From positions 6,572,001 through 6,636,000 of the forward strand of contig NC_092346.1 in assembly GCF_963676685.1 (NCBI RefSeq): a stretch of 64,000 nucleotides of DNA. Reading direction: 5' to 3'. The translations under genes and the position numbers were made by a program. Positions 1,002 to 42,918 of this stretch are shown in pieces. Below the pieces are notes generated by a model. It had not been told where the DNA came from. It saw nothing but the letters and a program-made list of their open reading frames with translations, and ran no database searches. The DNA comes from Mytilus edulis. Its lineage: Eukaryota. The stretch's first letter is position 1, and every line of letters starts with the position of its first letter.

Positions 1002-1231
1002 CCCAGATATAATGTCCCATGCTATGTTGAAGTATGTAGTTCCTACTTTTACATCATGCAGGTGAGCCAAGTAGTTCCTGTAGTATTTAATTCTAGCCAA
1101 ATCGGCTCCTGGTGTGGTTTCGATGTCAGTAGGTAAACAGTCAAATCCACCATGAGGATGGGTTATATTAGTGAAGTTTCTAAGAAGTGTTATCATCAAT
1201 TGAATGTCAAATGTCTTGGAATCTGGAACAT
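1002..1231 (-). CDS. HEPN(DZIP3-like) family gene, copy A, second coding exon (gene continues beyond the left edge)
   Basis: CAG acceptor at 1234-1232, phase matches exon 1. DVPDSKTFDIQLMITLLRN...DLARIKYYRNYLAH...WDIISG with intact HEPN R-N-x3-H motif, GT donor at 1001. Same 230-nt length as paralog exon 28615-28844. Confidence 0.85.
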
Positions 1232-1899
1232 CTGAAAAAATAATAATTTCAACATTGATGACTGGTAGTTTAAGGTCACAATGTAATGTTTATTAACAGT
1301 CATAAAAAATTCTAATCTAATAATATTAATCTAGTTATGTTAATCTAGTTATGCAATAATCTTTCGGTGTTTAATCTACTTTTCTTGTGGTTTATATTGC
1401 TCTTTTATTCACTTTTCTTGAATCTACTATTCATACAGCAAGAATGTAAATTTATATCATAATACTCCAAGAAGACTGCGTCCCTAGAAAAGCATTTAGG
1501 CATAACAAAAATGCAGGGTTTATTGTGCAAGAATTGAAATTTGAAATTCTATAAGAACAGAAAATGTTTAAATATTTAGCCTACACACATTACAAAAGAT
1601 GCTTTCTAAATATTAAGTTACATTTTAGTATGTTCAGTAATACTAGCGAAATGTTTTTATTTTAATAAAACATATTGAAAAATTCAAATTTTGACACACA
1701 ACAGCTTTGTTTTCCCCCCTTCTTTATTAACATTGACTTTTTTTTAATGGTAAGAGCAGGGATTTCAAAATCTTTCCCAAACTGTGGTATCTTTAAATTT
1801 GTGACGGAGACAGTGTACTGTGGATTCATTTTTTTTTTCATGGTTGCCAATTTTCCTGGGTTGATGAAAATGTATATTATTGTGGATACTTGAATTAAT

Positions 1900-2232
1900 G
1901 AGATAACTGTATTGTATTTTAAGCTCCGACGGCATCAATTGGGGATTTGATGGTCGTAAATTAAGTTTACTGGTGACGTGTTAGCGGAGACAGTAAACGT
2001 GTATTTGCAACCATCAAATCCATAATTGATGCAGTCGGAGCTTAAAATACAATATTGTTATCACCATCCTAATGAAACTGACAGAAAACAACGTTAAAAC
2101 ATGCATTTAAAATCTGTCATATGCTGTCTGCGCTTGCGCTTACGTCCCATAGCATCAATTGTCAATTGATGCCATGTATAAAAGTGACGTTATCCAATCA
2201 AAATTAACGTTACAAACGTTGTTGCATTAGAA
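1900..2232. repeat. Fold-back repeat (~165-bp palindromic head); second copy at 2623-2815
   Basis: gagataac...ttttaagctccgacggcatcaatt...gatggtcg mirrored by ccatcaaat...aattgatgc..tcggagcttaaaa...gttatc. Confidence 0.75.
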
Positions 2233-2849
2233 CTATGCTTTTACTTATCAAGCTTATGTCTGCAAACCTATAGAATATTTGAACTTCATTGAACATTTAA
2301 ATTTTAGAATTACCAAAGAAATTAAAAAAAAATGGTATCTAACTGTGTTTACACAAATAATAACAATTCCACAGTATTCACATGAAAAATATGGCACAAT
2401 GCCAAATAAGTGCAAATTTACATAGCATAGTGTAGATATGAATGTTTTTAATAGTGGAACATATAATTTTTGACTTGATAAATTTCATTGTAGTATGTCC
2501 TAAATAAACTCCAAACTGCACGACTGTCTTAGTTACTGTGATTACCTTTCAATGAAGTGACACCCAAAAAATGTCTTTAAAAATATAACAGTAGCCAAGA
2601 ATATTTCATGTGCATATATTTAGGAGATAACTGTATTGTATTTTAAGCTCCGACGGCATCAATTGGGGATTTGATGGTCGCAAATTAAGTTTACTGGCGA
2701 CGTGTTAGCGGAGACAGTAAATAGGTATTTGCGACCATCAAATCCCCAATTGATGCCGTCAGAGCTTAAAATACAATATTGTTATCTCCATTCTAATGAA
2801 ACTGACAGAAAACAACAGTAGGTTATAAGATTTGGCTTTCTGTACTAAC

Positions 2850-3066
2850 CAGGATATCTTGGGAACATGTGATTCCATTGTGATTGGTTGATTCTGTGTT
2901 TGCTTTTTAAGTCCTTCAAGTTGCAATGCTCTTTTTTCAGTGAGGCATATAAACATGTTGGATCAAATTCACTATCGAAGAAAGTTCTAGCTGCCCGTGG
3001 AGAAATTCCTGTTAGTAACAAACTCATTCTAACATAGTTTTCTTCCTCTGTTGAAAGCGAGGCCAT
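2850..3066 (-). CDS. HEPN(DZIP3-like)-nSTAND3-ankyrin family gene, copy A, first coding exon
   Basis: ATG at 3066, MASLSTEEENYVRMSLLLTGISPRAARTFFDSEF...QWNHMFPRYP, GT donor at 2849. Collinear with the paralogous exon at 29973-30184. Confidence 0.85.
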
Positions 3067-12503: not shown

Positions 12504-13276
12504 TTGATGCAAACGTTCCGAGAGGCCACGAGGAGACCTTTCGGATACCTTCTGGTGGATCTGAAGGCCGCTACATCCGAACACTTGAGATTACGTAGCG
12601 ACGTCTTGGGCGGAGGCGAGGACGACGCCGAAGCCGAGGACGAAGACGTCGATTCCACCGGAAGCGAATCGAACACCATGGAACTCGGGGAAGAAGACGT
12701 CGGAAGCGAATTGGACCTGATGGCTTGCCGCGCATGCGGACTGGTATTTGCGCACGCCCGGGGACTCGAGATCCATCAAGAGAGGGACTGTGGCGACGAA
12801 CCATCCGCCAAACGATGCAGAACGGAAGACGACGGCGTGGAGGGAACCTACGTATACGAACTGGAGTGTTATCTCGAAGACCTGCCGGCAACCGTGTGTT
12901 GTATCGATGAACTGCCGGATGAAGTTTCGAACAGGCCCCGCAGTTTCGTCGTCAACACGGACGACTGCGACGGCAAGGGCATTCACTGGGTGGCGTTCCA
13001 CTTCCCGCGAGAGGGACCCGTCGAATTTTTCGATTCGTTCGGACGTTCTCCGGAGTATTACCTTCGTCGCTTCAGGAACGTGCTCATCGCCAATGGACCT
13101 AAATACAGATTCAGTACGACTCAAGTGCAACCGGGATCATCCGATACGTGCGGACTCTATTGTGTACATTTCGTGAAGATGAGACATAGAACCATTAGCA
13201 TGGAAGACATTGTGAAAGATTTTCGTCTAGAGACTTGATGAGTAACGACGACAAACTGCTTGCATTGTACGAATGA
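12504..13276 (+). pseudogene. Packaging ATPase C-terminus + acidic linker + CxxC/H zinc finger + adenain-like cysteine protease (fusion ORF, 3' part)
   Basis: ATRRPFGYLLVDLK (Polinton ATPase C-terminal motif), CRAC...H...C, NTD..GIHW..FFDSFG..VQ..TCGLYC. A 1-nt deletion near 13222 shifts the end; the true stop is 13274-13276 by comparison with the copy ending at 19501. Confidence 0.85.
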
Positions 13277-13464
13277 ATGTAATAAATATATATGAAACTG
13301 ACATCTGCGTTGGTATTTTTTCTATTTGCCCCGAACACGATACGATTAATCGGTGATTGATGTTCACATCATGAAGAGTTGCTTCCCTTTTTTGTATCAG
13401 AGTTCCTCGATACGATCACGTGACCTTGCCTCGTTGAATTGTCACTCCACGAGAGATATATATA

Positions 13465-14998
13465 TGTTACAGGCATTTTTCTAAATTTAGGCATTTTGTA
13501 AAATGACTGAAATTTTTAGGCATTTTCTAAAATGCCTGCATGATTTAGGCATTTTACAAATTGACTATTTTTTTCAGGCATTTTATAAAATGCCTGAAAA
13601 AAATGTAAGGCATTTTACAAAATGCCTAAAAGACTAAAAACTGAATGGAATGCACTCAAAATTTAACGACTTGAAATATCAAATAGATAATTCTATTATA
13701 TCATTTAATATAGCATGCAATTTAAACAGTTGCAGTTTTATAATTGTAATTAAATCATTTACATAAACACTGAAGATGACAATTAGTGTTGCTACATGTA
13801 ATGTTTGGGTGACAGCGACTGTTACATATTTGTTCTGACTTTTTGCAAAGACAACTCTTAGTGTTACATCTAGTCTAACCACTAGCACTACAGCCACATT
13901 TTGTGTAACCCTGACCATCACACAAAGAAACTTTACTGAAAGCTTTTTTAAAGGATATTTCATTATCATAATTGCAGATTGAATAGCAATAAAGTTCCTG
14001 CCAGACAGTTCAAACTGAATCCTGGTGTAACTTGAGTCCACGTAGTATTCCCAGTTCAATGAATTGGTGCATGCTAAATTTCCAGTGGCAAATATGTCAT
14101 GCATATTCAATAGGCCTATGAGACAACTTAATGGTAAAAGAAGTTGTTAACTCATTTTTTATGTGATTATGTCCTTGTTTTTACTTGACCAATTGTTAAA
14201 ATATTACTTGAGTGCATCATATTTTTATTTTCAATATTTTGCAAGATGAGCAATTCAGGAGTAGTTTCACAAAAAAATTACGACTAAGATTGATCGTAGG
14301 TCATGAACAATCCAGTATACTTACGATCAATCTTATTAATAAGTTTTTTGGTTGTGAAACCGACTCCTGGCTCCTAGGAGTCTACAGAATTGACACTTGT
14401 TTTGAAAACTTTTAAATAAGTTATAGCTCAAGAGAAGAAATGCACCTATTTTTGCATATGATAATAATCCGAGGAATGTCCTTTTATTCCAATCTTAACT
14501 TTGTTCAAAATAGTTTCATATTTTTCTCTGTTCCATATAACACGTTTCAATTAGTTGGTTTATAAATCTTTGTTCTGGTGTAAGAACAACATGCCCTTCT
14601 GTCATAATGAAAGAAGATCATTAATGAAATACAGAGTGAGTACTAACTCATAGTTGTTGCTCTATGGAGTTTCTAATTACAGACATTAAAACTAATAAAA
14701 CATGAAAATTTAACCTGCAGACTACATTTTTAAAGAATAATCTTAACTTTATTTTACTCAACCCTTCTTTGTAGCTTTACAATATATTTCTATCATCTAT
14801 TTCATGTATTTCATATTTACACAATTTGGTTGGATAAGGCAATTTGTGAAATTTTCATTAAAAATTTCAGGCATTTTACAAAATGACTAGTTTTTTTTAG
14901 GCATTTTCTAAAATGCCTGTCAACTTTAGGCATTTTAGAAAATGCCTGAAAATTCAGTCATTTTACAAAATGCCTAAATTTAGAAAATGCCTGTAACA
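13465..14998 (-). mobile_element. Ginger/KRBA2-type DNA transposon remnant inserted in the Polinton terminal repeat
   Basis: TIRs TGTTACAGGCATTTT...AAAATGCCTGTAACA with subterminal AGGCATTTT repeats, inserted in a TA run and absent from the sister repeat at ~19680. Minus-strand remnant GQGYTKCGC...C..KSCLCKK....CNSRCH. Confidence 0.75.
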
Positions 14999-15836
14999 TA
15001 TATATACAGAGTTGCTTTCCTTGTTTTGTACCAGAGTTAACGTTCCTCGATACGATCACGTGACCTGCTGTCCATATATGGTCATATATGTTTATTTTGA
15101 TTTTTGAGTGAAAATAAAAGTGTTTTTTTCCAAATTTGGTCATCATTTCCATATATGATCATAGGGTATCTGGTCGGTTTCCATATATGGTCATGTATTT
15201 TATTTTGATTTTTCAACGGAAATAAGGTTTTTACCAAATTTGGTCATGATTTCCATATATGGTCATAGGTCGTTTTGTCGATTTCCATATATGGTCATGT
15301 ATGTTTATTTTGAGTGAATATAAGGTTCTTACCAAATTTGGTCATAATTTCCATATATGGTCATAGGGTATTGTGGTCGCTTTCCATATATGGAATTCAT
15401 CATATGGTGTCCAAGAGTCATAATCCGACATCTGGTGCTTCCGTTTTGATATATAGCCCTTCATACTAGAATTGGCAAAGATCTACGTGAGTCATACTGT
15501 TCATATGACGTCAGCGCCTTAGCGCCTTGCGTTTTTGTGGTTGCATAAAACATCATAACGAACAGAAAAAATACTTCTCGAATTTTCATACGTACATCAT
15601 GGTATTGTCATGTAGTGAGTCATGTCCTGATCTTGCATCCTGATGATTCATGGTTGCGTCATGACCAAATATGACCGGCGTCCATCCGTCGTGATTCATC
15701 TTCCTTACTTCCGCTGACGTTATTAGGGCTAGTATATGCCCATATATCATATTGGGGGCGGGGCATGCGCATATGACGTCAGCGCCCTAGCGCCCTGTGT
15801 TTTTGGGGTGGCTCAAACTGAACCGTCCCTACTACT

Positions 15837-18192: not shown

Positions 18193-18737
18193 GAGGACCA
18201 GGTAGTGACAGTTTCTCCTCTGAGTCGGATCTTTCCCGAAATACAGGTTCTGATTCACAGCCACCACCGACAGGTTCTAATGATGCGATCCTTCCGTGAA
18301 CAAGTCGTTGATGCGACGGTCTTTGGCCGAGGTCGACATCAGGTCGTCCAGCACGAGTAAGTTTCTGGTCCGTGCATCGAAGAAGTGGTCGGCTTCCAAC
18401 TTGGTCGGGATACCGCGAACGAATTCCACGGTGGGCACCACCGTCTTTCGAATCTCGTCGTAGAGGGGTTGCCATCGTCGGTACAGCCAGACGATCCTCT
18501 CCGGCACCGGGTTGCACATGGATCTTCGCAATGCTTCCTTCACGAAAAACGTCTTGCCGCAGGAAGTCGGACCGGAGACGATCATGGTGAACGGGTGTTG
18601 AAAACGAAATATTTCTTGCGTCGCATTTTGCGGTGGCGGCGGCGGCGGTGGTGGTTCGCCAGTACCATGCTTATTTCGATGATGTCTCAACATGACGTCT
18701 CTTTCGAAAACATTCTTTGACAGTTAGGACACTCCAT
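18193..18737 (-). pseudogene. C2H2 zinc finger + poly-Pro + A32/FtsK-like packaging ATPase (fusion ORF, 5' part)
   Basis: MECPNC...(frameshift)...MLRHHRNKH, Walker A GPTSCGKT, Walker B LLVLDD, FTEGSHH*NLS..QNLY..QRRNCHYLVL, then an abrupt break at ~18193. Confidence 0.85.
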
Positions 18738-18765
18738 CCTCACTTCAAGGGTGGAACTTTCCCTC

Positions 18766-19187
18766 TTATAACTTTTGTCGGAAATGAAGCAAGCAGAACA
18801 CGTGATCATCTTTCAACGGCACACGCGAAGTCGATCGTCTCTCAAGGTGATTTCCAATATTTCCGTCTCGCCTCCCCTCGACGCGAGGTAGAGCGGTCTC
18901 TCGAAAATTATCTCCGTGGTCTCTTCTTTTCTGATGGCTACGGATTGAAGCAGGGGCAGGTAAGTGTCTCTGACGTAAGATTCATCCCTTACCAGATCGC
19001 AACACACGTACATCCTCTGCGTAGACGTTTCAAAAGCCGGTACAAAGGTCATCTCCAACAGAGCACACTCCCACGTTCCTTTCATTAAGTGTGATCTAGG
19101 TAAACGTATTCTGAACTGTCCTCCCCTATTCTGGGGGAAAAGTTGGAGCGAGTCTCCACTATTGACGAATAAGTAAAACTCGTCCAT
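18766..19187 (-). pseudogene. Compact Polinton/adintovirus-type minor capsid (penton)-like protein
   Basis: N-terminal FYL..NS.DS...FP.N...F.I.LP....G.WE.AL.E and C-terminal YVCCDLV...PLL...PLY...EILEITLRD motifs. A frameshift near 18815 restores a terminal ...CLLHFRQKL*. Confidence 0.7.
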
Positions 19188-19262
19188 GGTTTTGATTAAG
19201 CATTCGATCCTCTTCCTCTTATAACCATCGCCGCCGCCGCCGCCGCAACCGCCGCAGCCACC

Positions 19263-20519
19263 TCGGACGTTCTCCGGAGTATTACCTTCGTCGCTTCAGG
19301 AACGTGCTCATCGCCAATGGACCTCAATACAGATTCAGTACGACTCAAGTGCAACCGGGATCATCCGATACGTGCGGACTCTATTGTGTACATTTCGTGA
19401 AGATGAGATATAGAAACATTAGCATGGAAGACATTGTGAAAGATTTTTCGTCTAGAGACTTGATGAATAACGACGACAAACTGCTTGCATTGTACGAATG
19501 AATGTAATAAATATATATGAAACTGACATCTGCGATGGTATTTTTTCTATTTGCCCCGAACACGATACGATTAATCGGTGATTGATGTTCACATCGTGAA
19601 GAGTTGCTTCCTTTTTTTGTATCAGAGTTCCTCGATACGATCACGTGACCTTGCCTCGTTGAATTGTCACTCCACGAGAGATATATATACAGAGTTGCTT
19701 CCCTTGTTTTGTACCAGAGTTAACGTTCATCGATACGATCACGTGACCTGCTGTCCATATATGGTCATATATGTTTATTTTGATTTTTGAGTGAAAATAA
19801 AAGTTGTTTTCCAAATTTGGTCATCATTTCCATATATGATCATAGGGTATCTGGTCGGTTTCCATATATGGTCATGTATTATATTTTGATTTTTCAACGT
19901 CAATAAGGTTTTTACCACATTTGGTCATGATTTCCATATATGGTCATAGGTCGTTTTGTCGATTTCCATATATGGTCATGTATGTTTATTTTGAGTGAAA
20001 ATAAGGTTCTTACCAAATTTGGTCATAATTTCCATATATGGTCATAGGGTATTGTGGTCGCTTTCCATATATGGAATTCATCATATGGTGGTCCAAGAGT
20101 CATAATCCGACATCTGGTGCTTCCGTTTTGATATATAGCCCTTCATACTAGAATTGGCAAAGATCTACGTGAGTCATACTGTTCATATGACGTCAGCGCA
20201 TTAGCGCCTTGCGTTTTTGTGGTTGCATAAAACATCATAACGAACAGAAAAAAATACTTCTCGAATTTTCATACGTACATCATGGTATTGTCATGTAGTG
20301 AGTCATGTCCCCGATCTTGCATTCTGATGACTCATGGTTGCGTCATGACCAAATATGACCGGCGTCCATCCGTCGTGACTCATCTTCCTTACTTCCGCTG
20401 ACGTCATTAGGGCTAGTATATGCCCATATATCATATGGGGGCGGGGCATGCGCATATGACGTCAGCGCCCTAGCGCCCTGTGTTTTTGTGGTGCCTCAAA
20501 CACCTCACTCCCTACTACT
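19263..20519. repeat. ~1.26-kb terminal repeat of the mini-Polinton (second copy 13039-15836); includes the 3' end of the protease gene
   Basis: Near-identical sequence from TCGGACGTTCTCCGG to CCCTACTACT in both copies. Confidence 0.93.
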
Positions 20520-21960
20520 ATCACACCTCCAGTAAGTATATCTACCATATTTACCTTTCTCATTAGAGAAGAAGGCTTTAAATGAGTTGCAGCAAATATA
20601 TTTGCATTCAGATTTACCAAACGACCATTTAATTAAATAGGAAAACTTTTGTGTAATAAGATAGTGTGGAATTGCAGTGTAAAGAGTAGAAAAATCAAAA
20701 CTGTCAACCGAACAAAAAGGACCATCAAAAACACGTAATTTATCTAAAACATCCAAAGATTTTTTTACACTCCAAAAAAGGTTTATATCACTATGTTCAT
20801 ATATTTTTGCTCTTCTACTTCGCACTTTATTTGACCTTTTTAACTTTTTTGGATTCGAGCGTCACTGGTGAGTCTTTTGTAGACGAAACGCGCGTCTGGC
20901 GTATATACTTAATTTAGTCCTGGTATCTATGATGAGTTTATTTATTACAATAGTTTATGATAAGCTCTTTAATAGTAGTTAATGAACTTGTTAAAAGCAC
21001 TGAAAGATTAGTTGTAGATAAAGGCAACAGTAGTATACGGCTGTTCAAAACTCGCGTAAACGATGGACAAAAAATAAAATCGGGGTAACAAACTAAAACT
21101 GAGGAAAACGCATTAAATATAAGAGGAGAACAACGACACAACATTAAAATCAAACACACACAGAAACGGACTAAGCATTAGACAAAATCCGATGTAGAAC
21201 ACTTACTAGAGGCCGAGATGAAACGATATTTAAATGGTTTTTTGTTGTTGTGTAGTTTAGGTAGCCAATACATAGTAGAAACCTTCAAATGTTCAGAAGA
21301 AGTCTTAAGCTTTGATGTGGTTGTGATATGTTTGTTTACTATATGACTCTCTGTGGAGCGGATGGACTTCAATGTAGATAAATTTGAAATTTCATTCTTA
21401 AGAACGTCCGTGTAGTAATTACGGCATACCACCACATTGTTGTCTGCTTGGTAGGCCGGTACAAACACAACCCGCTTTGAAATTTCTTTAAGTTTATTTC
21501 TTATTCTGGAAATCGGTGTATTATGTACTCTATTATTTAATTCTAAATTATTTTCAAAATGTAATATTCTCTTATCTACCACATTCATACATTTATTTAA
21601 ATAAGAATCGAGAGGTTTTTTTTTATCAGATTTTCCTTGTTTACACCACTTTTTACAAAACGAGGAAAGAGCATCGTTGGTGACTTGACTACACTCTTTC
21701 CAATCTATTTTAGATGGAAAACGATATTTTGGTCCTTTTTTCAAAACGTTTTTAACCTCTCTGTCCTGGACGATATTGAGATCCCCTGTAATAACATGGC
21801 CATAAGGGACATATCTAAATTTCGACAATTCACAGTTTCAAGTTAAGGGAGTATTATTATCTATATTCACGTCTGATGTAACCGATGTATAATTAAAAAT
21901 TAAACTTCTGCTGGTTTTTTTTGTATGTGTATAAAATTATAGGTGGTTCATCAAACAACT
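20520..21960 (-). mobile_element. Penelope-like retroelement, degenerate, 5' part of RT ORF
   Basis: ORFs 21178..21828 (GHVITGDL, KGPKYR, YWLPKLH..P.KYRFI) and 20505..20825 (DSFDFSTLYTAIPH), interrupted by small insertions; ends at ...YTYWRCD (TGTGAT). Confidence 0.85.
20857..20902 (+). ncRNA. Hammerhead ribozyme copy with core mutation (CUGGUGA)
   Basis: gagcgtca-ctggtga-gtcttttgtagac-gaaa-cgcgcg-tc-tggcgt; lies in a short insertion inside the Penelope RT. Confidence 0.65.
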
Positions 21961-22009: not shown

Positions 22010-22055
22010 ACGCCAGACGCGCGTTTCGTCTACACAAGACTCATCAGTGACGCTC
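22010..22055 (-). ncRNA. Minimal type I hammerhead ribozyme
   Basis: Minus strand GCGUCA-CUGAUGA-GUC(UUGUGUA)GAC-GAAA-CGCGCG-UC-UGGCGU: complete core, stem I, stem II and a short palindromic stem III. Confidence 0.8.
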
Positions 22056-22796: not shown

Positions 22797-25290
22797 TCAC
22801 ATTTTTTTCTGACTTGAATGTTGATTAATAATATTAACTATATCTTTGTAACCTTTTCTAGTAGCAAAAGTTAAAGCTGATTGACCCTCAGAGTCACATC
22901 TATTATAGTTTATCCCTCTTTCTAGCAACAACTTTACTATGTCTTCATGTCCGAGCTCACAAGCCTTCATTAAAAGAGACGCACCCTCATCATCAAATAA
23001 ATTCTGGTCTCCACCTCTATCTAATAATATTGATACTACTTCTGCATGACCATTATCACATGCCTGCAATATATGTGATTGGCTTATCCTCTCACATTTA
23101 TTATAATCTGTGCCTCTGTCTAACAACAACTTTACTATTTCTATATGTCCCTGTTCACAAGCTATCATTAACGGCGACTCATGCCAATCATCACATTTAT
23201 TATAGTCTGCTCCTCTGTCTAATAGCAACGTTACTATTTCTGAATAATCATTTTCACAAGCCACCATTAAAGGTGATTTACCGCCCCTGTCACATTCATT
23301 ACAGTCTGCTCCCTTGTCTAACAATATCTTTACTATGTCTGAATGATCATTTCCACATGCCTTCATTATAGGTGACTCAGCCCACATGTTACATCCATCA
23401 CAGTCTGATCCTCTGTCTAACAACATCATAACTATTTCTGTCTGACCATGTTCACATGCCTTAAGTAAGAGAGACTCACCATCATCGTCCCATATATTAT
23501 GGTCAGCTCCTCTGTCCAATAACATCATAACTATTTCTGTATGGCCTTGCTCATAGGCGATCATTATCGGAGATTGACCCAACCTGTCACATTTGTCATA
23601 GTCGGCTCCTTTGTCTAACAACATTTTGGCTACTTCTATTTCACCACGTTCACAAGCTTTCACTAAAGTTGGCTCTTCCGAACTGTTACATTTATTATAG
23701 TCTGCTCCTCTATCAACCAACATCTTCACTATTTCGGTATGACCATGTTCAAACGCTTTCCTTATAGGTGACTTATTAATATCATCGCATTTATTAAAGT
23801 CTGCTCCTCTGTCCAACAACATTTTTACTATTTCTGTGTGACCATATTCACAAGCCTTCATTAAAGGTGACTCGCCGTCATTATCACACTTAGTATAGTC
23901 TGCTCTTTTGTTCAACATTATCTTTACAATTTCTGTATGACCATTTTTGCAAGCTGTCATTACGGGTGACTCGCCATATAAACTGCATCGTTGACTGTCT
24001 GCTCCACTGTCTAACAACATCATTACTATTTTTGTATGCCCATTTTTACAAGCTTTCATTGCAAGTGACTGACCATAATCATCATATTTATTGTAGTCTG
24101 CTCCTCCTTTTAACAACATTTTTGCGATTTGCGTATGACCATATTCACACGCCACCATCAAAGGCGACTGTCCCCATATATCACATTCGTTACAGTCAGC
24201 TCTTTTGTCTACCAATTTCTTTACTATTTCTGTATGACCAAGTACACAGGCCTTCATTAATAGTGACTGGGCCAAGTTATCACATCTAATAAAGTCTGCT
24301 CCTCTATCCAACAGTAACTTTATTATTTCTGTATGACCATGCTCACAAGCCTTCATAACAGGTGACTTCCCATCATTATCACGCACATTACAGTCTGCTC
24401 CTGTGTCTAATAACATCCGTACAATTTTTGTATAACCACGCTCACAAGCCTTCATTACAGGTGACTCATTTTCACCATATGTATTATAGTCTACTCCCCT
24501 GTTTAACAATATCTGTACTATTTCAGCATGATTATGTTCACAAGCTTTCAATAAAGGTGAATGACTATAATCATCTGTTTTATTACCGTCTGCTCCTCTT
24601 TCTAACAAGATCTTTACTATTTCTGTATGACCGTGTTCACATGCTTTCATTAAAGGTGACTGGCTATCATAATCGCATATATTAAAGTTTGCTCCTCTTT
24701 CTAACAAGATCTTTACTATTTCTGTATGACTGTGTTCACAGGCTTTCATTTAAGGTGACTGGTTATCATAACTGCATCTATTAAAGTCTGCTCCTCTTTC
24801 TAACAAGATCTTTACTATTTCTGTATGACCGTGTTCACATGCTTTCATTAAAGGTGACTGGCTGTCATAATCGCATATATTAAAGTCTGCTCCTCTTTCT
24901 AACAAGATCTTTACTATTTCTGTATAACTGTGTTCACAGGCTTTCGTTAAAGGTGACTGGTTATCATAACTGCATCTATTAAAGTCTGCTCCTCTTTCTA
25001 TCAAGATCTTTACTATTTCTGTATGACCATGTTCACAAGCCTTCATTACGGGTGACGCACTTTCATCATCACATCTATTAAAGTCTGCTCCTCTTTCAAA
25101 CAAGATCTTGACTATTTCTGTATGCCCGTGTTCACAGGCTTTCATTAAAGGGGACTCATCAAAATAAATATAGTTGTTAACATCCACACCCAAATCACAA
25201 CACCATAAAACCAAAGAAATGTCACCCATAATGCAGCATTTTAAAAGAACATCATAACCGTCATCATGAAGAATATTTGTTTTAAGTTTA
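22797..25290 (-). repeat. Ankyrin-repeat coding array (99-bp units, ~25 repeats)
   Basis: Repeated SP(L/V)MKACEHGHTEIVK(I/M)LL(E/D)RGAD motif in ORFs 22797..24749 and 24750..26048. Confidence 0.95.
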
Positions 25291-28200
25291 GGCTGATCAC
25301 AAATATGTGCTAGCTGTCTCTGGTGAGTTATATCTAATGTATCTAAATGAAGCATAAAGTGTCGTCTGAATTGTTGCATCTTCATATTGATGTTACTAAA
25401 TACATCTTGAACTTTCCCTTTTGACCAGTCATCAATCATTCTCTGTATGTACATTTGGTGATATGTTGGTGGTATAATAGTTAAAAACTGATCCATCTCA
25501 TCGGTGCATGCTAATAAAAACCTCTCCTGGATCAGACTACTATCTGCATTCTTTATCAAACATTGTATTATTTTCTGTCCAAAGAAGTAAGCAAGAAAGT
25601 CAAATATTTTATCATGTATTATCTTGTACATGTTTCCGACTTTCCTGATGAATGTATCTTTAAGCGAGTTCAGTTCATGCCGTAATAAAAGCCTTGGTGT
25701 TGTCCTATCCAGTCTACATGCTTCACATGTGTCTTCAATAATAATCCTAGTTTCTACATTTACCTCATCTACCAATATTTCATCGTTCAATTTGTTGTTA
25801 AATATGACACATAAAGCCAGAGCACAATATTTAGTGTAATGCCCTTTCTTGAGTAGCTGGTCAATTTCTGCTTCATAAACTGTAAATGGATTCTGGAAGA
25901 AATCTTTAACGTTAGGTCTAGGACTATCATGGTATAATTTACATAAAAGAGGAAAACAATCATATAAATCACTATATCCAGTAATCTCAGGAACTTTCGT
26001 GTTTAGATATAAATCTGCTATTGATTGTTTTTCAGTTTTAACAAACATATATTTTCTGACAAGAGGTTACATTCACATGACTTGAAAACTGACAAAGATT
26101 CAAATTGTTTATCCTTATATACGTGTAAGTGACAAGCAGCAATAATTCTTGTTCGTTTATTTCCAAGAAGCTTTTTGATATCCTCCATGACAGGTTCCCA
26201 ACGTTTAATGTCACGCTGTTTAACAGAAAAGTTTCCGCAGAAATCATCAATAACAAACAATATTTTTTCTCTAGGATTGTAAAACCTCACAATGTCACAT
26301 GGCTCTGTAACCAGAAGAACATTAAACTCTTCCTCGGCCATTTGTAAAGCTACATGTCGGAGAATGGCTGTTTTTCCTACACCAGAGCTAGCAGTAATCG
26401 TGACACAGTTGTGTTCCTTTATACATTTGAATACAAGCTTGGCAGCTCTTGTTTTTATAAACATCTTATCATCATTTTCCTTCCAGGCTTTAAGCGTTTC
26501 TTTAAATCTTGCTAAAATATGAACAAGGAACATTTCCTTATAATTTTCATTTATACAAGTAATAGCCCGAGATTAAAATATTTGTATTGACATATTCATG
26601 TGCCAAAAAAAACCCTTAAATAATCAATGTCGTTCAAAAAATAATCTTCTAACAATTTCAAAACATTAGCACATTAAGTTAAAACATCTAACATTCAAAA
26701 TATTAACCTGTTTGACTGTTTACGTTTAACAGTTTATTCTCTTAGCGTTAACCTTCGACATTCAAAAAGATAATATGTTCTCACAAAGTCTACCTTTATA
26801 GCTCCTTCATTATTACCCGACTTGAATTTAAAAGAAGTAAATCACCTAAAACTATACTATTTTATTTCTTGTAAGACTTCATAGAACCTGCAAATTCAAC
26901 CTTCATTTTTTTATATATATAAAACACATGTCATAAAAATAATCTCAAACTTACCTCTTATATTACAAGGAACTGTATCATCGTAGGACGTTTTCAACCT
27001 TTTAATTTCATCTGTCATTTCAGTATGATCCTCTTGGAGTTCTTCATAAGATCTTTTCAGTTCTCTATGGTCTCCTTCGAGTAGAAGTTCATGATATATT
27101 TTCAAACTGTTTAGTGACTCTTTTAGATTCTTAATTTCATCGTTAGAGCATTTAATATCCTCTATTATTTCTTTGTTTGTTTGATCCAGTGTTCTGATTC
27201 TTAGATGATCACAGTCCTGTTTTATTTTCTGTCCACCTAATCTCCCAATGGCCTATAAAAATAGAATCCAAAAAAATACTGAACTCCGACGAAAATTGAA
27301 AAAGGAAGTCACTTATCAAATGGCAAAATCAAAAGCTCAAACACATCAAACGGATTGATAACAACTGTCATATTCCTGACTTCGTACAGGCATTTTCTTA
27401 TGAAGAAAATGTGGGATTCTTCCTGGTTTTATAGCTAGCTAAACATCCCACTTGTATGACAGTCGCATCGAATTCCATTATATCGATAACAATGTGTAAA
27501 CAAAACAAGCAGACATAAATAAATGGGTAACAATGTAAAATAATAGGCATATAGCAGTCAACATTGTGTTATAAACTTAATCACTGTGAAAACAAACAAA
27601 TATGTAACAAAAGAGCACATAAAGGCATATAGACAAAGCACATAAGCAAACATTAAAGATTAGAATACAAAAATAAATCTAAAGTACAATAACACAATGA
27701 CGGGATGTATGAGTAGTTTGTGGGGTTCGTATTGCTTATTCTTTAGTTTTCTATGTTGTGTCATGTGTTCTATTGTTTATCTGTTTGTCTTCTTTCATTT
27801 TTAGCCAGGCGTGATCAGTTTATTTTCGATTTATGAGTTTGACTGTCCTTCTGGTATCTTTCGTCTCTCTTTTATTAATCTATAATTTTCACAAAAAATA
27901 AAAACTGTCTTTGCATGTCCTATTACTAATAATAAATTTCATGTCAATTTATAGACAATTTAAATGCATGATACAACTCCGTATATGTCTTTTTTTGTAC
28001 ATCTGTAAATAAAAAGTTCATTGCATTGTTTTGTATACAAGAGTATATATAAACAAAAAAACGATTTAGTATATCTTTCCTTTATGAATAAAAGTATAAC
28101 AAAAGTTTATGAGAAACTGGTGTTAATGCTGGTATCACATAAAGTAAAACTTCACATTATTAATAATCTATAAAAACGAGGCCAGGGTCAAAAACGCATT

Positions 28201-30184
28201 TTAGCGACAGTAAGTGCATACGTCTATTTACTGTGGGTTCATTTCTTTTGGTGGATAGAGGAAAAACTTGCATGTTCGTGGATATTTGATTACGTGGTTT
28301 TGGCGAAATCTGCATTCACACCGTCAGCAAATTTGTAATTCGTTGAACTTTTAAATTCGTAGTTTCCCTATATACACGAAATCCACGAAAACTGGTATCC
28401 AACGAATACTTCTAGTACAATTAATCCACAGTAGATCCCAGCAGTTGGCATCATAATTGTTATCCAGTTGAAAAAAATAATTCTGAAAACCTGTATTTGC
28501 AATCAAGAAAAACAAATGTTTAATCATGAACAAACTGGAAACTTGTCTATAACAGAGCAGATCTGATAGCTTTAATAGCACTTAATGGAAACAGGTTTCA
28601 CTAATATATCTTACTCCAGTTATAATGTCCCACGCAGCGTTGAAGTCTATGCTTCTTACTTTCCCACCATCCAGTTGAGCCAGGTAGTTCCGATAGTATT
28701 CGATTCTAGCTAAATCTGTACCTGGTGTGGTTTCCATGGCAGTGGGTAAACAGCCAAATCCACCCTGATGATTGGTTATGTTCTTCATGTGTCATAGAAG
28801 TGTAATCATTAATGTAATGTCAAATGTCTTGGATTTCGGATCATCTGAAAAAAATCAATAATTACATCATTCATAAGTGTTTGTTCTTTGTATTGATGAA
28901 TTAAGTATTTACCAACTGATTTTTTTTTTGGTTTGTTGTTATGTTGTGCTGTTACACTACTGTCCGGGGGTTGATTGCTCCACACATGTTTAACCCCACT
29001 ACGTTCTATATGTGTCTGTCCCAAGTCTGTAGTTTGGTCGTTGTCATAGGTTCATGTTTGTCATATTCGCTTTTCGTTAATTGTTTTATTGTTCAATTAT
29101 GCCGTTATATAAAACATGATTTTAGCATGATTAAATAATTTCTCTTTCGATCATACTACTGACTCAGTGGTAATTGTAATTGTATGAGCTCTTATCTAGT
29201 TTATTTGTTCATGCTAATACAATAGAGCATTATTCATTTGTTGAGCTAAGTAAATCTCTTACTTGAAATTCAAAATAATGAAAACAGGAAGTAGGCGTCT
29301 AAAAGGCTTTTTTTTTATAGCTGACTCTGCGGTATGGGCTTTGCTCATTTTTAAAGGCTGTACGGTGACCTATATTTGTTAATTTCTGTGTCATTTTGGT
29401 CTCTTCTGGAGGGTTGTATCATTGGCAATCATACCACATCTTCTTTTTTTTATATCTCCATCAAAGTCACAATGTATCAAAGGTTGACAATTACAGGATA
29501 AAGTGCGGTCGTCAACTCAAGCCTTAACTCACACCGAACAGCAACGTTTAAAGGGTCCCAAAATTGAGATTCTTACACAAGATCTTATAAAAAAGTAAAA
29601 TCACAAAAATAACTTCCAGGAAAATTCAACAGGAAAGTCTCTAATCAAATGGTAAAATCAAAAGCTCAAACACATCAAACGAATGGACAACAACTGTCAT
29701 ATTCCTGACTTGGTACCGGTATTTTCTTGCATAGAAAATGATGGATTAAACCTGATTTTATAGCTAGTTAAACTTCTCACTTGTATTACAGTCAAATTAA
29801 ATCCCATTATATAGATAACAATGTGTGAACATACAGACACAATAGGTTAAAATGTCAATACTAGGGACCCGAACAGCAGTCAACATTGTGTTATTGTCTT
29901 ATTCACTTTTAAAACAAAAAAAAGATATTAACAAACATTAAAAAGGTGATTAATCTTGCTTTGTGAACTTACGAGGATATCTTGGAAACAGGAGGTTCCA
30001 CTGTGATCGGTTAATAAGGTGTTTCGTTTTTAAGAAAAGCAATTTGTTGTACTCTCAATGAAGCAGATAAATATCTTGGAGAAAATTCACTATCAAATAA
30101 TTTTCTAGCTGCTCGTTTAGAAATTCCTGTTAGTAATAAACTCATTCGAATATAGTTTTCTTCCTCTACAGAAAGGGAGGCCAT
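22797..30184 (-). pseudogene. HEPN(DZIP3-like) - coiled coil - nSTAND3-like NTPase - ankyrin repeat NLR-like gene, copy B; exons 30184-29973, 28844-28615, 27252-26955, 26511-22797
   Basis: Canonical GT/AG sites with consistent phases. Walker A ASSGVGKT, Walker B ILFVIDD, ~25 ankyrin repeats. Lesions: 5-nt deletion frameshift near 30056 (relative to copy A), in-frame TGA 28794-28792, HEPN His>Gln (RNYLAQ), frameshift near 26040, TAA 24752-24750. Confidence 0.85.
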
Positions 30185-36828: not shown

Positions 36829-37197
36829 TAATAAGTTATCTTAGCTATAAATTTGGAAAATAAAAATATTGTATTGTATTGTATTGTATAAAGCCTTTCA
36901 ACCCTTTAAGTATGTTTTAAAACTAATTAGTTTGTGAAATACATATCTTTTTTATTGTGCACATAAAATCATCGATAAGAGTTTAACACGTTAAAGATCG
37001 TTAAAGATTCATATTAATATTGAACCACTAACTGAGCACAACGCGCTGTAAAATTGAATGCCCCGATTATCAAACAGAGTTATCTCCCATATTTATGAAT
37101 TGTCGCTGTTGCTTGGGTCAAGATTAGTCACATCGGGACCTACACACAGTTTACATTGTACACTCCTGCAAGGGAAGTATATATTTACAAAGTGAAA

Positions 37198-37860
37198 ATG
37201 GGTTCCGTTATAAAATATTTATTAGGACTGAAAAACCCATCTCTTGTGGCTAATTTTCAGAAATTTTGTCAAATAGAAATTTTACCTGGAACTGAGTCTG
37301 AAAAAAAGGATTCTGAGTCTGACTACCTGTCATCCTCATCTCATGACAGTCATGTGCCCAATGGAGATTTACACCAAAGACTTGCCAAAACCAATGGGTT
37401 TGTTCAGAATAATAGCAATAGTGTCATTAATAACGAACACTGTAGTCAAAATGGCTCTATACACTCAAATAATGTTGACCACATGGAAAATGTGCAAAAA
37501 GACTGTATACAATCAGAGGATAAACAAGAGACCAAGTATATTGTGCATAGCAAATTTCTATATTGGACTTTTCGATTGGGAGCAGGATTTGGAAATGAAT
37601 TCTTTTATTTGACATTTTTCACATTCTGCTTATGGAATCTCAACAGCTTAGTAATGCGACAAATGGTCATTATTTGGAACGCCGGAATGTATTTAGGGCA
37701 AGCAGCAAAAGATATAATTGAATGGCCTCGTCCATCTTCACCACCATGTGCCAGGTTAGAGAATAGATACTTGGAAGAATATGGAATGCCGTCAACCCAT
37801 GCGACTGTTGGGGTTATAATTCCCTTTGGACTAATTATTATTGGCCATAGACATTATGAG
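37198..37860 (+). CDS. SGPP: Sphingosine-1-phosphate phosphatase (SGPP1/2-like, PAP2 family), exon 1
   Basis: ATG at 37198, GFGNEFFY, KDIIEWPRP (PAP2 motif 1), EYGMPSTH (motif 2), GT donor at 37861; 221 codons. Confidence 0.93.
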
Positions 37861-40765
37861 GTAACTATAGACAACTTTCAAGTTTGTGCACTTTCCTATA
37901 TAAATTTCCTACATGCATGTCACAATGCATATGTTATTAGGTTACAGTAAGAACATGAAGAACGTTCAACGTGTTCAATGACGTTGTTTTTGCCGATTAA
38001 CATGATTAAGTTGTAAATCATTCATAAAAAACAACTCGAGATCGGTCATGGTAAAAATGTACAAAATGTAGCTATGCATACTTTAAACATGTGTAACTTA
38101 CAAATGTAGCAACCTTAATTGCATGTATTGAGTAAAAGCCCAGAACATCATAAAATGGCCAGCACTTTAGTTTAGAATTTCCTTAACATTATGTCGTTAT
38201 GAACCAATTCAACTACATTTTTGTACAATGAAACATACATTGTGCATCAGTATGTATATATATAAAGACCAATTAGGCAACACATCTTTGTGAACAATAT
38301 CATTACATGTAGGTAAGGTCTAAAAGCCCAAAAGTGGGCTTAGTATAAAAAAAAGTAGCTACAACGTACATGTACATGTACAAGTATTTTGTTTTTATGA
38401 GCTGCTGATTTATATATAATATATAGGTGTCTTCAGAGAAGTGTCTATTTTTCTTGATACATAACCTACAACTGCAACTGTAATGTGTTTTTCTAGGATG
38501 TGGAAATTTCTTTTCACCAATTGTCATGGAGTCGATTCTTAAGTTGCTGAAATGTCTAAAGAAAACGTGCTAAAAAACACATTACCTCCAGCATTTGTAC
38601 ATGTTCTTACATGTACAAAATGTACAATATACATGTACTTTACATAAATTTGTAATGAATTAAATATTACAGGTCAAAACATACATATGTACATGTATGC
38701 TACAGTTTCATTTTTTAATTACTCAATGTCCATGATGTCTGTTGCAGATTTACAAAATGTATACATGTTACAAATTGTATGTATCAGAAAACAAGTTATT
38801 AATCATACTACATGTACATGTACATTTATATAAATTTTGTTTAGAGGCCAGCTGAAGCCCAACTCAACATGCTCAAGGTGTTGGATTTTCTTGCTGTGTT
38901 GAAGACCCATTGGTAGCTTTCAAGGCCTTTTTAGGGCCTTTGGTCAGATTAATGTTGTTTCTTAGACCCATTCTCCATTTCCATTCTCAATTTTAAGGCA
39001 ACTACAATGTGTACTGATCTTATTCTTGATTTTTAACATTTTCAAAGGTCTTCTAAATGAACATTGTAATTAAAAGACCTGTCAAATTAGATGCAAAGTT
39101 GCCTGTAAAAAAACCATGGTCCTCAGGTCCTAGATTGGATTTGACCATCATGATGTTTATGATGTTGGAGTCTCATTATTGTTTGAGGAAAGATTTCTTC
39201 AGTCATTTGTTTTTCAGTGTTTCTTAAAAATAGCACTAATAAATCATGTTCAATGATGTAGACTAAAGATTGTTCAGTGAATGGGATAAGACCATTGGTT
39301 TTCCAGTTTGAATGGTTTTACACTAGTAAATTTTTTAAGCCCTTTATACATTTTGTAGCTTGCTGTTAGTTGTGAGCCAAGGCTGCGTGTTGAAAACTTA
39401 ACTTTGACCTATAATGGTTTACTTTTACAAATTGTGACCTGGATCATGTGGATAGAAGGTTGTCTTGTTGGCACTCATACGTCATCTTCTTAAATATCTA
39501 ATTTATAGATATTTAAATTTCATTTCATGGCTCAAAATTTCTTCAAGCCTTCAAAAAAAAGATTAATTTTTGTTGAAAATTCAAATGCATAAATTCTTTG
39601 TTGACTTGTGACCCATCAAATCCCCAAAAATTGGTATCCCATGAAAAATAAGGAATCAACAGTCATGACAGTCCTGCATCATTATTTTGATATACTGTTG
39701 TAGAAAATCTTAAATAAAAAGCAGAACACTGACTGTCATGACTGGAGAACAAGATTTCCCACTTGTTGAGGAAATAACAGAAAGTTTTGTCATCCACTAT
39801 ACCTAAAGGGTTTAACATCCTCTTCCTATAATAATGGAAATTACATATAGTTTTCTGATTTGTAATGCAATCACAACAAATCTCCTTATTTTGATATTCA
39901 AAGAAACCAAAGTAAAAGATTGCTTGTTAATTCAATTCAAAACTGGAAAATAAATACTGAACGGTCTGACCCAAGTTTTAAATGCAAGACAAACAAACAA
40001 AGAATTATGAAGAAAGTAAGGCAGTCACACATGTTATGCATGTAGAAAATTTTCTTTCATGGGTTATCGGTATGTCCATACATAACAATATTAGGTATAC
40101 ATGTTCTAACATTAAATGTGAAGGATAAACTCTCTGAAGTGTAGCATGCTGTAAGAGTACAAAATCTTCAGGAAAAACTTTGTCACAAAATATTCATAAA
40201 AATTAGTAGTAATATTTCAAACACCCACATGGGGGATGATACAATGCACTTGTATAAGTACAACATATGAATAGTACTAGGAATTAAATGTGAAATAATG
40301 TCAACATAATTTAAATGCCACAGACAGTATTAGCATTTTTATCATTGTGATCAATATGGTGAATTTTAAACCCATGATTGATCAAATTTTATTGATAACA
40401 ATATATCGATGTTTTGTCCTTGGTGGTTCTTTATACATGTATTTGCTTTCTTTGAAAAAAAGAAGTGCATGAATATTTTATTCAGGTCATACCCTCTCTT
40501 TTGTGTTACAACTGACACAATTTTTGATAATGAAATAAAAAGTAGGAAACCAATGTAGAACCCTAGTTTACAGACACTTAATATACATATTTTATACCTG
40601 TAGACAGTTGACATAGATTTTGTACAAATGTATATATAACTGTGTATACAAACAATATAAACAATTGATATAGATTTTACATATAGGTTAGCATAATTAA
40701 TTTAATTTTCCATTTGAACATGTTATAAACCACTTTCAATAATTGATTGATACTTGAGTATATTT

Positions 40766-41615
40766 AATAGTTATCCCTTAAGGACGCGGTGTGTCAGTGT
40801 AAGATCACCCCGATGGCCGGAGGCCAGAGGGTGATCTAACACTGACACACCAAGTCCGAGTGGGATAACTATTTTACATCCCAGCTGTTTTAGATTAGAC
40901 GAAAAAACATTTACAATTCATAAAATCTAGTTTAGAACGCCACACAACCATTAAAAAATACTTTCTATATTACTTTATGATGTATACCCGTTATGACCCC
41001 AAAACACGATGAGTAGATATCAAACAATATCAACTCGCCCCACTTGCCAATTGGCCCACACTGTATCGCCACTTTATAAAAAAAAATCTCCCCACTCTTG
41101 TTTACCGACTCGCCCCACTTTTGAAAAAGTGTAAAATTAAATTGAACAATCAGTCTGAAAACTCACTTATTAACGAAAAAGGTTAAAACCCCACTGAATA
41201 AAGGTATGACAACTCGCCTCACTTAGAAAAAGATATTGCTTCCTTTAAGTATGTCAAATTACTATTAGTTCGTATCCAGTCGTCCTGGTTTAGTGGTATG
41301 TGTCGTGGCTTGATATGCTAAAGGTCTTGAGTTCGAATCCCAGCATATACACTGGATTTTTTCTACGTGAATTTTGATAGATAGACTGTTCCGTGTAGTT
41401 GTATGTTTAATTATAAGTTTTATAGTGGATTTGACATTCCCGCCAAAATGTTACAGAACAAAGGAAAGCATGCATAACAAAGAAACTCAAACTGGGGTGA
41501 TCTGGTAGGGGTGATCCGGCTCAGATCACCCCTGTTAGAACAAAGGAGCTGGGATGTAAAAATAGATATCATCAGGCTGTCTGTGGGTGATGACCAACTT
41601 CTGTTCACACAAAAT
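40766..41615. repeat. Fold-back element with ~108-bp palindromic head (40766-40873) and a probable nested insertion
   Basis: aatagttatccc...gtgtgtcagtgt.agatcaccc / gggtgatct.acactgacacac...gggataactatt; ctattttacatcccagc recurs inverted near 41550. Confidence 0.55.
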
Positions 41616-42828
41616 TAATCATGATATATATACAACATAATATTTACAAACAGGGTCAAGGATTAAAGTCTTCTATTAGAGTATATAATAACATTATATA
41701 TATATATAAATTGAAATTATAATCATGATAATACATTTTAGTCCACAGAAGAACATGTATAAATCTGCTTTTGCAGTTGGGTGCTCTGGAATTGGGTACA
41801 TGTACATGATGTGAATATCGTTTTTGTCAATTTTAGCCTAAAATATTAAATTTTCTATGCTTAAACCACATTATCAATTTTGGGAATGTACATGAATCAC
41901 CTAGTTTCAAGTAATTTTACTATCTCTGATCGATACAAACCCTTATTTTACTACATTTGTTCATGCACATCCATAATGATATTTTTTATAAATAAGGTTG
42001 TATCAGAGTTGGTAGATTCACCTAAAACTACATATGTCATGTATGTAGGTGAGGCATGCACATTAGTGATAGATACATACATGTACATGTACATGCTTGT
42101 TGCTACTTTACATGACAGTATTTGTCATTAGCTGGGCCAGATGGGCAGCGGTAGAGATCTCTAGAGTTCTCTGTCTATTCCCTAAATGCAGTGTTTACTA
42201 ATTATTGGTCCTGAATTGTGCTAGATAGGTTTCTATAGCTAAAGGGGTTCCCTATTTTGCTTATGTGGAGTTTTTACTGAATTTGGTATATATCAAGTTC
42301 GTAACCCTTAGCTAGCAAAAATGCCATATATGTAGCTTCATAATGGACATGATGGAGGGGAACTTCCCCTAAGCCCCTTTAAATTCACCTCTGGTATACT
42401 GTAAATTCAGAAATTGTTGCATGGCGTCAGAGTTGTAAACACAATAATTTAAACTCGCATTTTCAAATATTTTGTATGAATTAAACAGGATTTTTCTCAA
42501 ATTTGTAAAATTAAAATCACCTTTAACTCTAAAATGACAAAATCGCAATAATAAATGCACACAATATTTTCAAAATTTTAGAGTATATTATCAAGTAATT
42601 TCAACAGTTCCACAAAAAATAGAAAATTTCAAACAAAAACAACTATAGGAAACAACATTGATTAGGTCAAAGACTCTAAGGTGATATTGACTTCTCAAAA
42701 ACTGTAGAGTACATGTATGTTTAGTTAGAAACAATGTGTTTATATGAAATTGAATGTTTTATAAATTTATGTTATCATAGTTGTAAAAGTTAAAAATAAT
42801 CTAATTGCATGTGTTGTTTTTTTTTCAG

Positions 42829-42918
42829 TTTGATTTCCCCCTTCCATTAATAGTTGCATTTTTTTGGGCAACAGTTTGTGGACTGAGCAGAATTTATTTG
42901 GGAATGCATTCAGTTTTG
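42829..42918 (+). CDS. SGPP: SGPP exon 2 (not in the ORF track)
   Basis: tttttcag acceptor, 90 nt FDFPLPLIVAFFWATVCGLSRIYLGMHSVL containing PAP2 motif 3 (SRxxxxxH), gtaagt donor. Confidence 0.93.

Follow-up and report, generated by a model that had tools for sequence, protein, structure and literature searches.

What is encoded by a mussel gene in which a HEPN domain, a nucleotide-binding switch and a long array of ankyrin repeats appear to be joined, and is the copy considered here still able to function? The locus lies in a 64-kb window of the 1.37-Gb genome of Mytilus edulis (NC_092346.1, 6,572,001-6,636,000), the window being the whole stretch of DNA that was analysed. An earlier interpretation made from the letters alone, here called the sequence-only reading, saw in it an innate immune receptor with a ribonuclease (RNase) effector; it assumed an intact gene and relied on an R-x4-H motif in the HEPN domain. 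The copy in the window is instead broken in four places, two of them frameshifts and two nonsense codons, and the motif has become R-N-Y-L-A-Q, the His being gone. With moderate confidence the focal locus is regarded as a broken copy of a large Mytilus family whose intact members are likely intracellular immune receptors with a predicted RNase effector. The receptor proposal is thus wrong for the focal locus, while for the family it is supported by the STAND switch, the joined domains, the R-x4-H motif and the diversification of the ankyrin face. At the level of sequence several properties of the family are established: its architecture, its tandem expansion, the conserved R-x4-H and STAND motifs, a switch under purifying selection and an ankyrin face that diversifies.

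Domain Architecture and the Mytilus Family

The focal gene comprises four exons on the reverse strand (Table 1; exon 4 as a whole spans 26511-22797), every intron is bounded by GT..AG, and the intron phases are 1, 0, and 1 when exon 1 is set to paralog length. RefSeq model P0001 (XP_071159028.1, Mytilus edulis) matches the locus letter for letter. The list of HEPN, heptad-rich, P-loop NTPase, helical and ankyrin regions given by the sequence-only reading is correct, as judged by Pfam, by the GT..AG exons and by the heptad periodicity of exon 3 (P=0.014 versus shuffles). In the window frames nSTAND3 (PF20720) scores 86 bits against a cut-off of 27.2 and the ankyrin match has an E of 1.6e-163, and HEPN_DZIP3 (PF18738) is matched by the truncated model P0001 (E 2.5e-11, 44 bits against a cut-off of 27) and by the exon of the neighbouring paralog (E 1.5e-19). 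The Walker A (ASSGVGKT) and Walker B (LFVIDD) motifs of the NTPase lie at 26392-26369 and 26260-26243. The array that had been put at about 25 repeats holds 24 units by count (TRF gives 22.9 copies of 99 bp), and a low-confidence model of a paralog has a long helix (170-227) in the coiled-coil region. Neither NACHT, NB-ARC or LRR nor a kinase or KEN domain was matched in the Pfam scans of the window frames and P0001. Introns 1 and 2 contain very high-copy interspersed repeats (27315-27880 and 29188-29750), with a summed contig depth of up to millions.

Matches across the genome put the family at well over a hundred genes. All counts of pairing and of family size are lower bounds. There are at least 156 distinct genome matches to nSTAND3 (449-604 candidates), 130 of the 156 in frames of at least 500 amino acids (aa), against 7 matches to NACHT (from 113 scored candidates out of 162; others could be hidden by introns). 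An nSTAND3 exon follows within 50 kb downstream on the same strand for 84 of the best 98 HEPN exons and for 97 of all 150, compared with 22 of the best 98 and 24 of 150 in the upstream control. The genome-wide census that the sequence-only reading had proposed therefore gives a minimum of 97 HEPN exons that are followed by an nSTAND3 exon. The 2.6 Mb surrounding the window hold a cluster of 14 HEPN exons. Of 23 paralogs retrieved, 20 have an uninterrupted switch, in frames 526-2686 aa long, and a profile search gave 462 clusters at E <1e-30. The HEPN-nSTAND3-ankyrin architecture is shared by five Mytilus species and the ark clam Tegillarca, and members of one cluster (P0137) are at least 90% conserved across four Mytilus species. 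Two Logan contigs hold HEPN, nSTAND3 and ankyrin in a single contig-filling frame, 882 aa long on a contig of 2748 nt and 790 aa long on one of 2514 nt. This suggests that they derive from spliced messages of distantly related paralogs, although a copy without introns is conceivable. Splicing together of the exons in intact paralogs, on which the sequence-only reading had staked its case, is supported by this linkage of HEPN, NTPase and ankyrin, also on intron-free contigs.

The putative catalytic motif of the HEPN domain is near-invariant in these relatives. Among the 120 relatives listed, 73 proteins cover the motif and 72 of them keep R-x4-H, the sole exception being the focal locus, where R-x4-Q is found with no His within six residues, so that the R-x4-6-H pattern is lacking. 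Of the genomic exon-2 copies compared (73 from the best 74 among 150 scored matches, 334 candidates), 68 of 73 keep the motif and four others have lost R or H, and R-N-x3-H occurs in 87 of 96 covered distant HEPN domains. The motif invoked by the sequence-only reading is accordingly real in intact members and lost in the focal copy. The HEPN domain of paralog P0018 reaches a template-modelling (TM) score of 0.88 to the HEPN_DZIP3 cluster (predicted models). CARD was present and HEPN absent in 5 of 37 distant proteins scanned; P0150, P0167, P0176, P0189, and P0201 are CARD-nSTAND3 variants, most with ankyrins, and P0154 has two HEPN domains. Such variants may represent the swapping of effectors on one chassis. 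Another paralog (L016:3256-5502), some 65 kb to the left of the window, has a 1240-aa frame in which the helical region and the latter half of the NTPase are internally duplicated without loss of frame.

The STAND Switch

The paralog switch was modelled over 333 aa from 92 sequences (predicted local distance difference test 94, predicted TM score 0.86) as a P-loop domain followed by helical and winged-helix domains. The highest TM-scores among the rows listed are to ADP-bound NOD2 (0.50), NLRP7 (0.48), and NLRP3 and Dark (0.46). Walker A, a Walker B of the form hhhhD[DE], and the helical and winged-helix domains with a conserved His are all present, and the sensor-1 Arg after strand 4 is found in the family and missing from the focal copy. 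The Pro of FPLLC occurs in 92 of 92 relatives and the His of the IHDK motif in 78 of 92; we take FPLLC to be the equivalent of a GxP-type motif and the conserved His that of MHD. The first Gly of Walker A is Ala in this subclade (112 of 117), compared with Gly in 81 of 98 distant members. On motifs and predicted fold the NTPase of the family is assigned to the STAND class. This upholds a second point on which the sequence-only reading had made itself refutable, through the Pfam nSTAND3 match, the best fold likeness to NOD2 and the NLRP proteins, and the bacterial nSTAND3 look-alikes. The family may be called NLR-like in its working by analogy; strictly, it is not a canonical NLR, a class defined by NACHT or NB-ARC with LRR.

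The nearest non-mollusc look-alikes in the Atlas are nSTAND3 proteins of bacteria, an Mrr nuclease being present in many of them, with TM-scores of up to 0.70 over 376 residues (predicted models). This modelled likeness is no proof of transfer, and no bacterial relative was recovered at the sequence level in the searches made. The structure of Avs5 (9jap) has a TM-score of 0.40 to the paralog switch model, and PADLOC returned no Avs model among its matches, the best NTPase match being PDC-S73 (E 7.6e-14).

The Ankyrin Array as a Candidate Sensor

The ankyrin arrays of the family look like a diversifying sensor. The ratio of nonsynonymous to synonymous differences per site (pN/pS), taken without multiple-hit correction from 284 spanning-tree repeat pairs in 23 genes, is 1.27 on the predicted binding face (gene bootstrap 1.07-1.56) and 0.46 in the framework, the ten-position face having been chosen after an earlier look at the data and the framework positions being constrained by the search pattern. 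At the six positions randomised in DARPins the ratio is 1.35 (1.17-1.60). Four paralogs (L030, L028, L037, and L031) have strongly homogenised arrays, in which as many as 62 units were recognised, and a face pN/pS between 3 and 6, and in this they resemble fungal NLRs with highly conserved repeats.

Lesions of the Focal Copy and their Variation between Animals

The four lesions (positions in Table 1) consist of a frameshift in exon 1, which is 5 nt shorter than in the neighbouring paralog, an in-frame TGA in exon 2, a frameshift at the end of the NTPase in exon 4, and a TAA in the array. Since 650 codons beyond this last stop are still open, it is probably recent. The focal copy is the only one of the 73 genomic exon-2 copies with a stop inside the aligned stretch. 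Comparison was made with contigs of five DNA runs (X1, X4, X8, X9, and X11). X1, which may be the source animal, is identical to the window at the three lesions that its contigs cover. The 5 nt missing from exon 1 are present in X4 and X11 and absent in X1 and X8, the exon-2 stop is an Arg codon in X4, X8, and X11, and one extra base stands at the NTPase-end lesion in X4, X8, X9, and X11. X11 has a 2-nt loss of its own at 26955, the end of exon 3. The listed contig pieces leave the ankyrin stop uncovered; P0002, the ortholog model from M. galloprovincialis (NTPase 98% identical), ends at the same residue. Because three of the lesions differ between animals they are interpreted as alleles and not as assembly errors. 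That they are errors of assembly in an intact and active gene is very improbable, even with the NTPase-end frameshift lying in a short A run and three of the four lesions absent in other animals: the short-read contigs of X1 repeat the three covered lesions (with the proviso on its origin given above), X8 shares the 5-nt deletion, and the losses of His and Arg are substitutions, that of Arg being common to several animals. The contig comparison, the end of P0002 and the residue substitutions largely refute this explanation.

Residues expected to matter for catalysis and switching have changed as well. The Lys before the HEPN motif is Glu in the focal copy and Lys in 72 of 72 relatives. The sensor-1 position (26131-26129) is His, whereas 115 of 116 close relatives and 93 of 98 distant ones have Arg, and this His is common to the window, P0002, X4, and X9; two residues further on His replaces a Gln found in 116 of 116 relatives. 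Against the conserved columns the focal copy deviates at 9 of 73 in the HEPN domain (median 2; 1 of 43 full-length relatives as high), at 7 of 71 in the NTPase (median 3; 2 of 43 as high), and at 4 of 88 in the helical part (median 3; 19 of 43 as high). The three public models of the locus are all incomplete, none having an entire HEPN domain: P0001 begins inside it, P0002 omits exons 2 and 3, and P0281 is spliced immediately ahead of the His position and does not extend past exon 3. In three RNA runs of one study (X22-X24, with about 6% of each run read) exons 3-4 have zero cover in X22, and X23 and X24 give a few reads each, the mean depth being no more than 1.7 in one or two of 30 bins; this is a weak indication. 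With four lesions and near-zero RNA cover in these runs, the open, spliced and expressed frame of a functional gene was not found in this haplotype.

Selection History and the Proposed Function of the Family

The ratio of nonsynonymous to synonymous substitution rates (dN/dS, omega) on the switch is 0.27 (0.17-0.45) for the focal gene and 0.24 for the pooled paralogs (377 codons, 21 sequences, three paralogs broken in that region being left out). On the HEPN domain it is 0.49 (0.26-1.79) for the focal branch and 0.17 (0.10-0.24) for the paralogs (160 codons, 6 sequences). The paralog values support a constrained family. Between animals, 13 variants are nonsynonymous or stop-related and 10 synonymous. 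Together the switch, HEPN and variant data suggest that constraint lasted through most of the gene's branch, that the HEPN domain was relaxed first, and that the frame lesions came last. The focal copy would thus have passed from long purifying selection through the loss of catalytic residues to its present state of null alleles that differ from animal to animal, as in birth-and-death turnover.

Several observations count against the explanation preferred here. On the side of the focal copy, its switch omega is no different from that of the paralogs, and the variants between animals fit purifying selection better than neutrality (P 0.006 without and 0.09 with a fourfold transition bias; 0.07-0.30 when four variants found only in X8 are removed), so that neutrality is not clearly shown. 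Among the differences listed, X4 has no lesion from the ATG to 24971, so that some animals may carry an open allele of about 835 codons or more. On the side of the family, the best TM-score of the switch is only 0.50, and non-STAND AAA+ proteins (RuvB, DnaA, ORC, and clamp loaders; TM 0.31-0.39) are among the top rows by E-value. Face pN/pS exceeds 1 in only 13 of the 23 genes and is 0.82 in the focal gene. In the literature no report was found of RNase activity shown for a DZIP3-type HEPN domain.

The main rival, rather unlikely on present evidence, holds that the gene still functions in some animals as an RNase-dead, sensor-1-altered four-ankyrin pseudo-enzyme, a decoy, brake or sensor partner of active paralogs, the window carrying a null allele. 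It draws on the active-site changes, which are more widespread than the frame lesions: the sensor-1 His is shared as described above, the HEPN Lys-to-Glu change is also present in P0281, and X4 appears, from the differences listed, to agree with the window at the Gln codon. The raised HEPN omega of the focal branch, the undegraded helical part, and an X4 sequence uninterrupted in exons 1-3 and over most of the switch agree with it. It is opposed by several independent null alleles (window/X1, X8, X11, and probably the haplotypes behind P0002 and P0281), by the near lack of RNA reads in the three runs, and by M. californianus, M. coruscus, and M. trossulus, for which no ortholog above 73% identity is among the 120 proteins listed; the small HEPN data set also limits its omega estimate.

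For the intact members of the family a working model can be drawn by analogy with NLR, Avs and HEPN biology. RNase L and Ire1 are activated by dimerisation. A receptor at rest would be a closed, ADP-bound monomer; binding of a ligand to the ankyrin array would lead to nucleotide exchange and oligomerisation, the coiled coil would then pair HEPN domains into a composite R-x4-H site, and the paired domains would cut RNA, resulting in a halt of translation or the death of the infected cell. It is improbable, more so than the survival of a pseudo-enzyme, that the family is no RNase-effector immune receptor at all, its HEPN domain binding RNA or partners without cleavage, or its proteins serving in allorecognition, in stress signalling or in the control of transposons. 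In the literature no assay of HEPN domains from this clade was found, the P0137 cluster is strongly conserved between species, and STAND clades include non-immune members (PMC13581612). These points are set against the near-invariance of R-N-x3-H (72 of 73 proteins, 68 of 73 genomic copies, 87 of 96 distant domains), the tandem expansion, null alleles, diversifying ankyrin face and CARD swap, and the look-alikes that pair nucleases with nSTAND3 in bacteria.

Comparison with Known Systems

DZIP3 HEPN domains fused to ankyrin, CARD, NACHT, and LRR domains have been described together with an oyster expansion, and an RNase L-like role was proposed for HEPN-NACHT proteins (PMC3710099). The pearl oyster has more than 50 HEPN-NACHT genes, with the motif in 194 of 202 HEPN proteins, and other molluscs 5-20 NACHT genes (PMC9646362). 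HEPN-NLRs are known from cnidarians and other invertebrates, their function being called hypothetical (PMC8260672, PMC8662601), and related architectures from bivalves and Aplysia (PMC8195603, PMC9334734). The mussel family shares with these invertebrate HEPN-NLRs an N-terminal PF18738 domain, a STAND switch, a repeat sensor, tandem expansion and haplotype variation (PMC9646362, PMC8260672, PMC8662601), and for them too the RNase role is a hypothesis. Unlike their NACHT with LRR, TPR or WD40, the mussel switch is an nSTAND3 without a NACHT match, the sensor is ankyrin, and a coiled-coil linker is present; the focal copy differs further by the loss of its His. No paper was found on an nSTAND3-ankyrin version of HEPN receptors, and the portions seen of the STAND background literature (PMC13581612, PMC13449251, bioRxiv 10.1101/2022.07.19.500537) include no mollusc nSTAND3. 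The sequence-only reading implied more novelty than is warranted, since HEPN-NLR expansions with an RNase hypothesis are already published.

Bacterial Avs5 (Sir2-nSTAND3-TPR), which depends on Walker A, Walker B and a conserved Arg (bioRxiv 10.1101/2025.07.08.663546), and the Mrr-nuclease-nSTAND3 proteins share with the mussel family the Pfam NTPase family and the order effector-switch-sensor. The mussel effector is HEPN rather than Sir2 or a restriction endonuclease, its sensor ankyrin rather than TPR, and the gene a spliced animal gene, which places it outside Avs proper (prokaryotic, TPR-type sensor, phage defence). The description of the gene as an animal analogue of Avs holds for NTPase family and domain order, with the reservation that SAMD9 is already a tested one (PMC12680541). 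SAMD9/SAMD9L and Avs9 (PMC12680541, PMC10246899) offer the parallel of an animal STAND with an N-terminal RNA nuclease, as predicted in the mussel family; SAMD9/SAMD9L differ in their AlbA_2 nuclease, SIR2, TPR, and OB domains and in numbering one or two genes versus more than 100. RNase L and Ire1, with KEN, a HEPN family (PMC3710099), likewise combine an ankyrin sensor with a HEPN-fold RNase, predicted in the mussel family; they differ in their reverse order, kinase or pseudokinase switch and other HEPN family, and the mussel gene lacks the kinase-KEN pair. Fungal NLRs with highly conserved internal repeats (PMC13449251) are similar in their homogenised arrays, many pseudogenes and alleles intact or broken by strain, and differ in their NACHT or NB-ARC switches and other effectors.

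Features of the Window

Table 1. Features of the focal gene and of the next tandem paralog (positions in the window).
Feature	Position	Strand	Details
Exon 1: ATG and N-terminal half of HEPN_DZIP3	29973..30184	-	212 nt versus 217 nt in the next paralog; frameshift near 30052
Exon 2: HEPN core	28615..28844	-	TGA 28794-28792; R(28692)-N-Y-L-A-Q(28677-28675); Lys to Glu 28701-28699
Exon 3: HEPN end and predicted coiled-coil linker	26955..27252	-	heptad power; paralog helix model
Exon 4 start: nSTAND3 NTPase	26033..26511	-	Pfam PF20720 E 2.8e-24; frameshift near 26035
STAND helical and winged-helix part, then helical linker	25155..26032	-	FPLLC 25958-25941 and IHDK 25619-25599 conserved
24 ankyrin repeats and natural stop 22799-22797	22797..25154	-	premature TAA 24752-24750, repeat 5
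Next tandem paralog, exons 1 (3066-2850) and 2 (1231-1002)	1002..3066	-	intact R-N-Y-L-A-H

Exons 3 and 4 of the tandem paralog sit 4.3-20 kb left of the window. At 12504-13238 (+) and 18277-19295 (-) there are matches to a Peptidase_C5 adenovirus-type protease (E 2.4e-6) and an IVa2/A32-like packaging ATPase (E 5.8e-4, below the cut-off), short and scattered pieces which we take to resemble a Polinton/adintovirus-type element. Around them lie near-identical (90-100%) duplications (13039-13464 / 19263-19689 and 14998-15836 / 19681-20519), a 104-bp tandem array included. A type I hammerhead ribozyme match at 22010-22053 (-; E 3.3e-4, 32.6 bits versus a gathering score of 34) stands beside a reverse-transcriptase-like fragment (21178-21837) without a Pfam match, and the pair presumably fits a Penelope-like element. 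Exons of an ordinary gene at 37099-45278 (+), with no Pfam match at E 0.01, are assumed from their translation to resemble sphingosine-1-phosphate phosphatase, and 58041-58373 (-) is a protein-tyrosine phosphatase catalytic exon (Y_phosphatase, E 1.1e-9).

Significance

A transcriptome survey gave NLRs and NACHT as absent in M. edulis and speculated that other intracellular receptors serve as substitutes (PMC3308963). With at least 156 nSTAND3 matches versus 7 for NACHT, the nSTAND3-ankyrin family is a concrete candidate for such receptors, and one that NACHT-based surveys would miss. It also provides a direct test case for the RNase activity that was predicted in 2013 for DZIP3-type HEPN domains, and experiments would be better made on an intact paralog (the neighbour at 1002-3066 or the conserved P0137 cluster) than on the focal copy. 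A wider picture is possible and is put forward tentatively: the NLR-like repertoire of the mussel may consist mainly of hundreds of nSTAND3-ankyrin receptors and not of NACHT proteins, with a switch that is closest to bacterial nuclease-nSTAND3 defence proteins and may be bacterial in origin, ankyrins diversifying in the manner of a library of binders, and a HEPN domain that would act as a ligand-gated suicide RNase, the focal locus being a catalytically dead regulator now in the course of being lost.

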